A DNA stretch of 64,000 nucleotides from Eledone cirrhosa (lineage: Eukaryota). The notes beneath the pieces were generated by a model that saw nothing but the letters and a program-made list of their open reading frames with translations, made no database searches and was not told the DNA's origin. Of the stretch, positions 6,134-63,523 are shown one piece after another. The position numbers and the translations under genes were made by a program. Position 1 is the stretch's first letter. Every line of letters starts with the position of its first letter. The stretch covers positions 33,356,001 to 33,420,000 of the forward strand of contig OZ024741.1 in NCBI GenBank assembly GCA_964016885.1. Direction: 5' to 3'.

Positions 6134-6200
6134 TATTTTATCTGATGAGGACGTACTGTTGAAGATAGCTCAGTACCTCTGAAATGTGTATAATAAAATA
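6134..6200 (+). ncRNA. minimal type I hammerhead ribozyme motif
   Basis: TATTTTAT-CTGATGA-(stem II GTACTG/CAGTAC)-GAAA-TGTGTA-TA-ATAAAATA. Stem I is 8 bp. Predicted cleavage is after 6192. Confidence 0.75.
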
Positions 6201-6259: not shown

Positions 6260-6466
6260 TAGGAAAATGTTCAAGACCCCGACGGCAGAGCTCAAGCCGT
6301 TTCGACGGCTATTTCTGGACTGAAATGCGTCCAGAAATAGCCGTCGAAACGGCTTGAGCTCTGCCGTCAGGGTCTTAAACATTTTCCTATTACCCACTCT
6401 ACTACCCTAAGTATTGAGTACTCTGGTGCGTTATGGTCCACCTGGTTCCTTACCACAGTTCCTTCG

Positions 6467-6469
<3 letters not shown>
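6260..6469 (+). mobile_element. hairpin-plus-tail element (family H) in (TA)n
   Basis: Inverted arms span 6260-6389 and are followed by an unpaired 80-nt tail ending CCTTCGTTA. Six copies occur in the window. Confidence 0.85.
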
Positions 6470-6972
<503 letters not shown>

Positions 6973-12444: not shown

Positions 12445-12732
<288 letters not shown>

Positions 12733-12934: not shown

Positions 12935-13033
<99 letters not shown>

Positions 13034-13545
13034 TAGAATTGGTGCTCTGAAATAGCTATATATATATATATGAATGTATATATAGTGTATTTTGCAATAC
13101 ACTGTATGCTTAATTAAAAGCATTTCGAAGACCTTATGCTATTGTTTTAGAGTAGTGACAGACTCATTTACTTTAATTTTCAGCAAACAGGGGAGATAAA
13201 GCTGACAAGGCCCTGTTTCGCATTTATTGATGCTTATCAAAGCCAACTACTCCTCCTGTTTGCTGAAATCATGGATGTTTGGTTCTTATAGAATTCTAGT
13301 AAATAATCAGGAACTGATTATACAGAGCGGTTGCCGGTCAAGCATGCTGAAAATTAAAGTAAGTGAGTCTGTCACTACTCTAAAACAATAGCATAAGGTC
13401 TTCGAAGTGCTTTTAATTAAGCATACAATGTATTGCAAAATACACTATATATACATTCATATATATATAGCTATTTCAGAGCACCAATTCTAATTTTCAA
13501 TTTCTGCTTGATCGACAACCGCTCTGTATAATCAGTTCCTGGATA
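13034..13545. mobile_element. fold-back element (family F), complex copy
   Basis: Arms 13034-13185 / 13346-13492, plus extra inversions 13177-13195 vs 13250-13269 and 13307-13345 vs 13505-13543. Confidence 0.85.
13200..13244 (-). ncRNA. type I hammerhead motif, U3-A8 core variant
   Basis: Minus strand GGCT-TTGATAA-GCAT caataa ATGC-GAAA-CAGGGCCTTG-TC-AGCT. Confidence 0.72.
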
Positions 13546-15172: not shown

Positions 15173-15176
<4 letters not shown>

Positions 15177-15305
15177 AAAAGACTCATGACCCCGATGGCT
15201 GAGCCCCGGTCGTTTCGACAGCTAGGTCTATTACCCACTCTACTACCCTAAGTATCGAGTACTCTGGTGCGTTATGGTCCACCTGGTTCCTTACCACGCT
15301 TCTTT
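15173..15305 (+). mobile_element. family H element with second arm deleted
   Basis: Inverted arm 15173-15225 is joined directly to the tail CTATTACCCACTC...CCTTACCAC. Confidence 0.8.
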
Positions 15306-15307
15306 AG

Positions 15308-15359
<52 letters not shown>

Positions 15360-16732: not shown

Positions 16733-18292
16733 TGTGGCTAGTCGTACACAAGTCTTTACCACTGAAATCAAATAATCTGTGTGGCTAGTTATACACAAGT
16801 CTTTACCACTGAAATCAAATAATCTGTGTGGCTAGTCGTACACAAGTCTTTATCACTGAAATCAAATAATCTGTGTGGCTAGTTATACACAAGTCTTTAC
16901 CACTGAAATTAAATAATTTGTGTGGTTAGTTATACACAAGTCTTTACCACTGAAATCAAATAATTTGTGTGGCTAGTTATACACAAGTCTTTACCACTGA
17001 AATTAAATAATTTGTGTGGTTAGTTATACACAAGTCTTTACCACTGAAATCAAATAATTTGTGTGGCTAGTTATACACAAGTCTTTACCACTGAAAATAA
17101 ATAATTTGTGTGGTTAGTTATACACAAGTCTTTACCACTGAAATCAAATAATTTGTGTGGCTAGTTATACACAAGTCTTTACCACTGAAATCAAATAATC
17201 TGTGTGGTTAGTTATACACAAGTCTTTACCACTGAAATCAAATAATCTGTGTGGTTAGTTATACACAAGTCTTTACCACTGAAATCAAATAATTTGTGTG
17301 GTTAGTTATACACAAGTCTTTACCACTGAAATCAAATAATTTGTGTGGTTAGTTATACACAAGTCTTTACCACTGAAATCAAATAATTTGTGTGGCTAGT
17401 TATACACAAGTCTTTACCACTGAAATTAAATAATCTGTGTGGCTAGTTATACACAAGTTTTTACCACTGAAATCAATAATCTGTGTGGCTAGTTATACAC
17501 AAGTCTTAACCGCTGAAATTAAATAATCTGTGTGGCTAGTTATACACAAGTCTTTACCACTGAAATTAAATAATCTGTGTGGTTAGTTATACACAAGTCT
17601 TTACCACTGAAATTAAATAATTTGTGTGGTTAGTTAAACACAAGTCTTTACCACTGAAATCAAATAATTTGTGTGGCTAGTTATACACAAGTCTTTACCA
17701 CTGAAATTAAATAATCTGTGTGGCTAGTTATACACAAGTCTTTACCACTGAAATCAAATAATCTGTGTGGCTAGTTATACACAAGTCTTTACCACTGAAA
17801 TCAAATAATCTGTGTGGCTAGTTATACACAAGTCTTTACCACTGAAATCAAATAATCTGTGTGGTTAGTTATACACAAGTCTTAACCGCTGAAATTAAAT
17901 AATCTGTGTGGCTAGTTATACACAAGTCTTTACCACTGAAATCAAATAATCTGTGTGGTTAGTTATACACAAGTCTTTACCACTGAAATTAAATAATTTG
18001 TGTGGTTAGTTATACACAAGTCTTTACCACTGAAATCAAATAATTTGTGTGGCTAGTTATACACAAGTCTTTACCACTGAAATTAAATAATCTGTGTGGC
18101 TAGTTATACACAAGTCTTTACCACTGAAATCAAATAATCTGTGTGGTTAGTTATACACAAGTCTTTACCACTGAAATCAAATAATCTGTGTGGTTAGTTA
18201 TACACAAGTCTTTACCACTGAAATCAAATAATCTGTGTGGTTAGTTATACACAAGTCTTTACCACTGAAATCAAATAATCTGTGTGGCTAGT
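16733..18292. repeat. 47-bp tandem satellite, about 33 copies
   Basis: Unit GTGGYTAGTTATACACAAGTCTTTACCACTGAAATYAAATAATYTGT, with no unique spacers. Confidence 0.97.
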
Positions 18293-20703: not shown

Positions 20704-20871
20704 CAGAAAAAGAGAATCAGTGTTGCGACGAAAGAAATTTATTGGACATATTACAATTGTTTCTCGAGGCACGATCGATAAGGTGATCAAACCTGACTCT
20801 GAAATCGCGCGGTCCTCGGATACGTCTCGATTCTACGAAGCAGATTTTCCTATTTGAATATAAATATATAC

Positions 20872-20944
<73 letters not shown>

Positions 20945-21236
20945 TGTGTATATGTGTGTGTGTGTATATGTGTGTGTGTGTATATTTATGAATAGGAAAA
21001 TCTGCTTCGTAGAATCGAGACGTATCCGAGGACCGTACGATTTCAGAGTCAGGTTCGATCCTCACATCGATCGTGCCTCGAAGTGGTCGCTCGAGAAACA
21101 ATTGTAATATGTCCAATAAATTCCATTCGTCGCAACACTGATTCTCTTTTTTTTCTGTGATATCATACTCTGCTCTACGAGGGCATCGAGTGCTCATACG
21201 GCCTACCGCTTACGGACGCTTTAAGCATCCAACACC

Positions 21237-24753: not shown

Positions 24754-24819
24754 TGGCCTAATGGATAAGGCGTCGGCCTCCGGAGCCGAAGATTGTGGGT
24801 TCAAGTCCCACCAGGGTCG
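24754..24819 (+). pseudogene. tRNA-Arg(CCG) lacking the 5' acceptor strand
   Basis: TGGCCTAATGGATAAGGC D arm, TCGGC-CT-CCG-GA-GCCGA anticodon arm (CCG at 24780-24782), GTGGG-TTCAAGT-CCCAC T arm and CAGGGTCG 3' strand. The first 7 nt are replaced by (TA)n. Confidence 0.9.
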
Positions 24820-24910
24820 ATATGCACAAGGTTTAATTTTCCTGACTTCTCCGATACATCATTTCAGATTTATATTATATATATATATAACTATCTATCT
24901 ATCCAGTTCG

Positions 24911-24961
24911 GATCTAGCCGTCGAAACGGCCGGAGCTCAGCCGTCGGGGTCCTTTTCCTAT
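24911..24961 (+). mobile_element. family H single-arm fragment
   Basis: CTAGCCGTCGAAACGGCCGGAGCTCAGCCGTCGGGGTCCTTTTCCTA. Confidence 0.75.
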
Positions 24962-25035
24962 TATCTATCTATCTATTACATAAATGTATACATATATATA
25001 TAATTAATAAGTAGGAGCGAGGTTACAATCCATTA

Positions 25036-41563: not shown

Positions 41564-42089
<526 letters not shown>

Positions 42090-42470: not shown

Positions 42471-42476
42471 ACACAT

Positions 42477-42685
42477 ATAAGGAAAAGAAATCAAAAATGC
42501 AACTGTAGTCTTTTGAAGAATATTTATTTATTTCCTTTACCGTTTCACATTTCTTATGCTTTTCAAAAATAAAATGGAGATGGAGACAAACCACAAACCC
42601 CCCATTTCTGTGAAACTGGCAAAGGAAATAAATAAATATTATTCTTAAAAAGACTCCAGTTGCATTTCCGATTTATTTTCCTTAT
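42477..42685. mobile_element. fold-back element with degenerate U3-A8 hammerhead
   Basis: Arms about 42477-42548 / 42610-42685. Minus strand TTGAAAA-GCAT aagaa ATGT-GAAACGGTA-AA at 42568-42534. Confidence 0.7.
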
Positions 42686-42766
42686 ACTTTCACCTGTGTA
42701 GGACATCTCGTTTTTTTATTTTTCCTTTGTTTTTTTTTTATTTAAGAAAACTCATTTTCTTATATA

Positions 42767-43624: not shown

Positions 43625-43854
43625 TAAATAAATAAAAACAAAGAAACAGTTCCTTATATTAAAACATTTTCAACATTTTACGATCGTTTCTAGGATATAT
43701 ATATGTGTGTTGGTATGTATATCATATAGATCTATGTAAACATTTTACAAACTATCAGAGGGTATATACATACCTACACATATATATGCTGTCTTCGATG
43801 AAAATGTTTTAATATAAGGAACTGTTTCTTTGTTTTTATTCATTGTTTTTATTA

Positions 43855-55906: not shown

Positions 55907-56304
55907 TTAATAAGAGGAATTCCAACTTTGTCTGATTTACTCGTTTTATTTACAATCCTTTAATATTTATAATGGTATTATAATGAAATAGTATGATAGA
56001 ATATTAAATGTTAAATGTTAAGTGTTAATTGAACAAGTACTTTCATGCTTTCGCAATCTTCAGGTTCATAATGTGTGGTGACAGTCAAGTTTGCAATTTT
56101 CAACTGACAGTTGCAAATTGCAAACTTGACTGTCACCACACATTATGAACCCGAAGATTGCGAAAGCATGAAAGTATTTGTTCAATTAACACTTAACATT
56201 TAATATTCTATCATACTATTTCATTATAATACCATATTATATAAATTTTAAAGGATTGTAAATAAAACGAGTAAATCAGACAAAGTTGGAATTCCTCTTA
56301 TTAA
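55907..56304. mobile_element. 398-bp near-perfect palindrome carrying a hammerhead in each arm
   Basis: Centre CAACTG-A-CAGTTG at 56107. Arms end in TTAA, with (TA)n on the left. Confidence 0.92.
56030..56068 (-). ncRNA. minimal type I hammerhead motif (mutated twin on + at 56146-56184)
   Basis: TGAAC-CTGAAGA-T TGC gaaa GCA T-GAAA-GTAC-TT-GTTCA. Confidence 0.72.
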
Positions 56305-56398: not shown

Positions 56399-56402
<4 letters not shown>

Positions 56403-56593
56403 AACGAGTAGGACTCCGACGGCTGAGCTCAAGCCGTTTCGACGGCTAATTCTGGACGTCCAGAATTAGCCGTCGAAACGGCTTGAGCTCAGCCGTCGGG
56501 GTCCTACTCGTTCCTATTACCCACTCAACTACCTTAAGTATTGAGTACTTTGGTGCGTTATGGTCCACCTGCTTCCTTACCACATTTCCTTCG

Positions 56594-56596
<3 letters not shown>
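56399..56596 (+). mobile_element. hairpin-plus-tail element (family H)
   Basis: Spacer-less palindrome 56399-56516 centred on GGACGTCC, plus the 80-nt tail. (TA)n on both sides. Confidence 0.9.
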
Positions 56597-63329: not shown

Positions 63330-63333
<4 letters not shown>

Positions 63334-63523
63334 AAAAAGTATGACCCCGACGGCAGAGCTCAAGCCGTTTCGACGGCTATTTCTGGACAGAAATAGCCGT
63401 TGAAACGGCTTGAGCTCTGCCGTTGGGGTCATACTTTTTCCTATTACCCACTCTACTACCCTAAGTATTGAGTACTCTGGTGCGTTATGGTCCATCTGGT
63501 TCCTTACAACATTTCCTTCGTTA
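63330..63523 (+). mobile_element. hairpin-plus-tail element (family H)
   Basis: Arms 63330-63443 and tail to CCTTCGTTA. (TA)n on the left. Confidence 0.9.

Follow-up and report, generated by a model that had tools for sequence, protein, structure and literature searches.

Hairpin stubs of a Hydra-clade Penelope-like element in Eledone cirrhosa, likely made by twin priming on one RNA

How does a short repeat come to carry the same arm twice, head to head, with a tail on one side only, and is its hairpin made anew at each insertion? The question is raised by positions 6260..6469 (+) of the window, i.e., the whole stretch of 64,000 nucleotides analysed here, where a whole stub insertion of the repeat that we call Family H sits in a (TA)n target. 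This insertion is composed of a tail-less inverted arm (6262..6321, −), whose outer end is site 1, at a TA common to the target, and whose inner end falls exactly at +1, the putative transcript start; a 7-nt junction insert that is a partial copy of nearby arm sequence (6322..6328); a direct arm running from +2 to site 1 (6329..6389, +); and an 80-nt tail that stops at site 2 in a TA run (6390..6469, +). The direct arm contains the 3′ half of a type I hammerhead ribozyme (6346..6373, +), namely GAAA, stem III with a palindromic loop and the 3′ strand of stem I, with the cleavage triplet at 6366-6368 (+), and a bulged hairpin (hairpin 1; 4+4 bp, 2-nt 3′ bulge) is predicted just downstream of site 1 (6396..6419, +). 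The fold of the 6260-6390 hairpin reaches −113.7 kcal/mol (z −21).

An earlier note, made from the letters of the window alone, had counted six copies in 64 kb; six family members are indeed present, of which only four are hairpins (6260, 12446, 56399, and 63330). Besides the 6260 copy, these are an older copy of a diverged subfamily, with arms 82% identical (12446..12634, −), a stub in which both arms stop at +2 and are bluntly joined (56399..56596, +), and a stub whose inverted arm reaches +2 and whose direct arm starts at +5/+6 (63330..63523, +). The other two members are an inverted arm that lacks a tail of its own and directly abuts a bare tail, without any hairpin (15173..15310, +), and a single tail-less arm with neither partner nor tail (24902..24963, +). 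The arm pairs quoted in the note at 6260, 56399, 63330, and 12524 read as it gave them, and two of these four (6260 and 12524) differ between arms within the quoted segment. Other repeats surround these copies: a second, unrelated fold-back palindrome with arms of about 140 nt lies between TA runs directly after the 6260 copy (6500-6800); many more fold-back palindromes are present in the window, for example at 13032-13494, 20707-21151, 41758-42016, 42476-42686, 43627-43844, and 55907-56304; canonical hammerhead-like cores of other families are located at 6142-6185 (+), about 80 nt before the 6260 copy, and at 41843 (−); and a tandem array of a 47-nt unit (33 copies, 95% matches) occupies 16733-18292. 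Searched with Rfam, the window returned one tRNA only, a partial tRNA-like match (RF00005, 47 bits) at 24754-24811, just before the 24902 arm, which is probably a tRNA-derived repeat.

The family proved as abundant as the note had supposed: a 20-nt tail pattern has 54,281 exact matches genome-wide (reversed control: 0), a density of about one per 55 kb in a microsatellite-rich genome of 3.0 Gb, and exact two-ended hairpins of the main haplotypes number 16,959. Family H is denser around the window than on average, with 14 per 200 kb in the flank versus 2 per 200 kb elsewhere. The set that we call “unselected” is made of 131 tail records from the window, the first 100 exact tail-pattern matches on contig C1 with by-catch, the 200 kb flanking the window, and twenty 10-kb stretches; 12 records of diverged subfamilies were left out of position counts, leaving 119. 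One should remember that this sample is biased to younger copies and to the first 14 Mb of C1, and that counts of 127, 128, or 133 pairs include loci chosen by similarity or pattern. A (TA)3 is present at both ends in 82 of the 90 elements with an inverted arm.

Long copies led to the parent of these stubs. A close relative in which unique sequence replaces the inverted arm (L013), used as query, gave 40 long matches, and an RT/endonuclease ORF lies upstream of the same arm and tail. Judging by the ORF motifs, the hammerhead, and the (TA)n target, Family H corresponds to the pLTR end of a Penelope-like element (PLE) of the Hydra clade, longer copies of which reach the 3′ UTR and a broken ORF. 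This ORF displays the motifs RWR, DKT, and YRDD, together with a CxCx5C linker and, at its C-terminal end, an IY/YIG endonuclease; RT then IY/YIG segments follow in that order in L151, L152, L165, and L170, and every parent copy seen is broken. RWR and SDKT were found in L152 and L165, which fits the RWK motif of the Hydra clade and its DKT in place of DKG, while the CxCX5C linker, CxxC, and CxH (L033/L156, L039), as well as a single Cys between IY and YIG with no CCHH, were read by eye. The available part of PMC8557442 describes the Hydra clade as C-terminal EN+ PLEs with RW(K/R), DKT, a CxCX5C linker, GIY-YIG, and a hammerhead, and the likeness to the alignment in its supplement was judged by eye; Pfam gave no match for two parent fragments. 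In the tandem L170, the arm-to-arm distance is 3,113 nt, slightly above the range stated for the clade (generally under 3 kb). Other Hydra-type RT ORFs, about 40-45% identical to the parent, adjoin long Family H copies in L165, L168 (a 626-aa open stretch), L160, L169, and L038; several Hydra families nest and have (TA)n targets in common.

Other assignments were considered. A Naiad PLE has an N-terminal endonuclease and no canonical hammerhead, whereas the endonuclease here is C-terminal and a hammerhead is present; non-LTR retrozymes are tandem non-coding monomers with a whole hammerhead each, whereas the stubs are dispersed and hold half a core; a MITE has terminal inverted repeats and a fixed interior, whereas an 80-nt tail is carried here by one arm and the interior differs per copy. 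Identity with Hydra-1_Obim was rejected, as four short Family H motifs are absent from the available part of the PMC8557442 supplement. Family H is new and very abundant; its clade, its element class, and its layout are already known.

The earlier note had found no hammerhead core, which is true of the stubs, with their 3′ half only, because they begin inside loop II; it does not extend to the parent, which holds the whole core. Indeed, long copies display a complete type I arrangement, with stem I, the 7-nt box, a long stem II, GAAA, stem III with its palindromic loop, the triplet, and stem I again. The position 3-8 pair in 29 parsed long copies is U3-A8 in 21, C3-G8 in 5 (copies picked by pattern), C3/A8 in 2, and U3/G8 in 1, U3-A8 being a covariation already reported for PLE ribozymes (Cervera and de la Pena 2014, available part of PMC4209133). 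On the strength of this core, the terminal repeat contains a hammerhead, whose cleavage is predicted; searched with Rfam, six loci that carry long copies gave no hammerhead family, nor was the hammerhead fold obtained by MFE folding.

The outer ends of the insertions are constrained. The inverted arm had been said to stop always 80 nt short of the 3′ end; it does so in 78 of the 83 called cases of the unselected set, which makes it the rule and not a constant. A tail on both arms was seen at four loci (L026, L063, L175, and L212), two of which (L175 and L212) the tally of 83 misses. Among 50 two-ended hairpins listed out of the 16,959, obtained by a search blind to tails, 48 have one tailed and one tail-less flank, the remaining two (L217, L226) are of the same type on inspection, and one of the 50 is a local duplicate. 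This pairing argues against an independent choice of site, because the latter allows at most 50%: there are two fixed insertion ends, with one of each per insertion. In the tandem copies L165, L170, and L212, the tail is continued by a second bulged hairpin and then by the 5′ UTR and the beginning of the ORF; therefore, both insertion ends are internal points of the RNA. Sites 1 and 2 each lie at a TA common to the target, 4-6 nt before a predicted 4+4 bp hairpin with a 2-nt bulge; these two hairpins are weak (−4 to −8 kcal/mol; tail fold z +0.76), and neither of them showed a compensatory double change. An independent SINE-like stub master is disfavoured because the stubs end before hairpin 2. 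Nor do we claim that the tailed cDNA stalls at site 1: about 6 such junctions were found, no more than the background of short arms.

The inner ends are constrained as well. Among 154 paired arm ends, 115 fall at −5..+8, 49 at +1/+2, and 6 further upstream. The motif at +1, TTAGT/TCAGT, is Inr-like and resembles the arthropod initiator. The base beyond +1 (n = 32) is G in 16 cases, C in 14, and A in 2, when long copies have T there in 33/36 and C in 3/36. The G excess is modest (p 0.003 versus background, 0.08 once T is excluded), C is as frequent as G, and cap copying, to which untemplated G in L1 and SVA is attributed in the available part of PMC3287187, gives no account of C. When arms stop at +2, the sense-strand base before is C in 10/19, where the parent has A (window 6328-6329, L011, L026, L190, L228, and L229, for example). 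Long A/T homopolymer runs occur at the junction right at +1 in L176, L051, and G000:C1:18731457-18731599, as might arise when the RT stutters on the U run that lies upstream of +1, or through terminal addition.

A second wall lies at the predicted cut. Very short hairpins number 872; in our own reading of the 50 that were listed, 21 have both arms ending at +42/+43, 23 are collapses on stem III, 4 are ambiguous, and 2 are of other kinds. The 20 fetched out of these 21 all combine a tail and a tail-less arm, and their inserts are A/T at 18/22 sides, plus 6 single A/T and 3 blunt. We infer that +1 would be the start of a capped transcript and +42 the point of ribozyme cleavage; the coupled arm ends described below make it less likely that the wall at +1 is due to stalling at a small hairpin in loop II.

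As for the arms, the earlier note had called the variants that they share private to each copy, and this could not be upheld: 46 of 48 concordant haplotypes recur elsewhere, and the 6260 type is present at 277 loci. In the variable segment next to site 1, 48 of the 74 unselected pairs have identical arms, when permutation gives 8.2 on average and 16 at most, and 68 of the 74 show at most one difference (15.1 by permutation). The arm tree, a check named in the note, joined arms of one locus in only 5 of its 40 cherries and gave no locus-private signal; in 93 pairs, the own partner is the nearest arm outright in 4, is equalled by another arm in 28, and lies farther off than another arm in 61, and the distance within a haplotype is 2.95 to the own arm versus 2.84 to arms at other loci. 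Variants common to both arms are, thus, subfamily haplotypes, and their concordance points to a common source element, not a private one; the main stub haplotypes are present in long copies too. The apices, said to differ in all copies, are distinct within haplotypes in 18/18, 20/23, 11/12, and 10/10 cases, except that one apex of 52-53 nt, the collapse on the palindromic stem III mentioned above, recurs in about 2% of hairpins. Taken with the one-template concordance of the arms, this supports the note’s claim that the hairpin is built per insertion, because apices differ within subfamilies.

We consider it likely that the hairpins are short pLTR insertions, a tailed and a tail-less arm set head to head in (TA)n, in which both cut ends primed on one RNA. 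The endonuclease of the element, of the GIY-YIG type, would cut both strands of (TA)n; one target 3′ end would start cDNA at site 1 and the other at site 2, 80 nt downstream, and both cDNAs would extend toward the RNA 5′ end, where they would run off, the second displacing the first. Where the sites lie near the transcript start (+1), the arms would measure about 57 and 137 nt, i.e., the common stub; on an RNA left downstream once a tandem transcript has cut itself at the hammerhead, both would stop at +42, and on an uncleaved tandem transcript, both would be long. The cDNA ends would then be trimmed and end-joined with 0-6 nt of microhomology or short inserts and, therefore, each apex would be new. 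Stubs lack the second hairpin and would not serve as masters for new tailed copies. By analogy, cutting and priming on both strands are supported by the Poseidon element (available part of PMC11167929).

The main competitor to this scheme, which we regard as unlikely, gives each target end its own RNA to prime on: every RT monomer of a dimer would bring one, and the two RNAs would usually stem from the same master. Sequence is alike for one RNA and for two of one master. The own arm being no closer than others within a haplotype speaks for two RNAs, as do three loci with arms of different haplotypes (L222, L063, and L192) and the four double-tailed loci; at these loci two RNAs or later conversion are sometimes involved. 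Against it, the two arms of a hairpin have their 5′ end class in common. With both-at-cut hairpins at about 2% (21/50 × 872 versus 16,959), mixed pairs would be expected at about 25% from two independent RNAs, but a tailed arm at the cut with a longer inverted arm was seen in only 3-4 of about 80. Long arms, moreover, pair with long arms: the unselected set has 11 loci with a long tailed arm, and a partner, long every time, is visible at 6 (L176, an extra diverged-subfamily case, being counted among them), no partner is within reach at 4, and the stretch covered ends too soon at L089 and L100; selected long loci include about 14 long-long cases, as well as L162, L043, and L166, where a long arm faces a very short tailed arm (by eye). 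The arm ends of L186 are −17/+2. L222 (G000:C1:13297700-13303000) has a tailed arm mixing the variable segment of one subfamily with the tail end of another, and its inverted arm matches the second subfamily, as a template switch or short gene conversion could leave.

We find it harder still to believe that a single cDNA folds back, or that an antisense template primes itself as proposed in PMC3846280, and is copied back to a fixed point. Perfect palindromic apices do exist (56399), and some junction inserts look like snap-back copies, 14/28 of those of at least 6 nt having a 6-mer copy within 30 nt. However, arm lengths are symmetric, the longer arm being the inverted one in 25/77, the direct one in 22/77, and neither by more than 2 nt in 30/77, and a longer inverted arm is impossible for fold-back of the tailed cDNA unless a later deletion occurred. 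Inverted arms with sequence missing from the tailed side are found at 15173, L180, L193, and L201, and both arms can be complete with a non-palindromic insert between them (9 loci with both arms at +1). Overall, arms join with a 0-6 nt overlap in 43/77 and with inserts in 34/77. Palindromes are prone to deletion, so some arm asymmetry may postdate insertion; we looked for a mutation or deletion bias between arms and found none (56 inverted-only versus 47 direct-only). In L004, L024, and L027, the tailed arm is joined to inverted unrelated flanking or other-family sequence, not to its own arm.

Homogenisation in cis after insertion, raised by the earlier note, would account for arm concordance and for a few shared singleton changes, but it is rejected as most improbable because post-insertion mutations are arm-specific: in 127 pairs, substitutions in one arm number 242 versus 33 shared, the latter being mostly subfamily markers (16 at one marker), and CpG changes number 99 in one arm versus 23 shared, 16 of the 23 being one subfamily marker. 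It is just as improbable that the hairpin spreads as a unit, MITE-like or as a hairpin SINE with a fixed apex, as large homogeneous subfamilies and the recurrent 52-53 nt apex could suggest, since apices are distinct within haplotypes, ends are asymmetric, the main stub haplotypes also occur in long copies, and the recurrent apex falls on the element’s own palindrome.

Returning to priming of both target ends on one RNA, a wider reading, to which we give even chances of being right or wrong, is that PLEs use programmed twin priming: two hairpin-marked start sites would lie on one RNA, each target end would take one, and the cDNAs would run to the same 5′ end. The stubs would then be a fossil map of RNA 5′ ends, showing where transcription starts and where the hammerhead cleaves in vivo, and the tail and head-to-head inversion of the whole class would be accounted for.

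How does Family H compare with known elements? With the Hydra clade, including Hydra-1_Obim (Craig et al. 2021, available part of PMC8557442), it has in common CxxC/CxH around conserved E and N, the (TA)n target, and an inverted 5′-truncated copy with a tail at one end; it differs from the clade as described there by its unit of about 3.1 kb (L170), its tail of 80 nt rather than 30-40, its long ribozyme stem II, and the fact that most copies are 190-210 nt stubs. Like the PLE hammerheads and animal non-LTR retrozymes described in the available parts of PMC4209133 and 10.64898/2026.07.22.740005, it has a type I ribozyme in a pLTR with a palindromic loop 3, the U3-A8 covariation, and pairs on opposite strands, but its stubs are dispersed inverted pairs with half a ribozyme and not tandem ribozyme-bearing monomers. 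An inverted PLE copy with a one-sided tail has already been described (PMC3846280 and the available part of PMC8557442), and how such inverted ends and the one-sided tail arise is listed as a question to be solved in the available parts of PMC8557442 and PMC11167929. In the literature covered, which leaves out subscription journals, we found no paper stating twin priming for PLEs, and no description of these hairpins among the octopus-related papers listed.

In the twin priming of L1, two target ends prime on one RNA, and microhomology joins the products into a 5′ inversion; the second end primes wherever it can, and the two arms have no sequence in common. In Family H, by contrast, the position of each site is fixed, and both arms are copies of one RNA segment. 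The closest parallel is Poseidon PAc of Anolis, studied in vitro by Frangieh et al. 2024 (available part of PMC11167929), where both strands are cut and extended at AT-rich DNA, a dimer is predicted, and RT starts inside the RNA at two sites bounding the tail, near the pLTR-ORF junction, with the hammerhead upstream; Family H would likewise have two internal start sites bounding a tail, with a hammerhead upstream. As far as the available part of that paper goes, one site is not tied to each strand per insertion, the inverted arm is not explained, and no reads end at the ribozyme cut, whereas hundreds of Family H insertions end there. About 17,000 natural insertions of Family H, with their end pairing, coupled 5′ ends, and ribozyme-cut stops, bear on the role of PLE hammerheads; they are a useful mechanistic footprint and lead to specific testable predictions, for which an in vitro system for a related element already exists.
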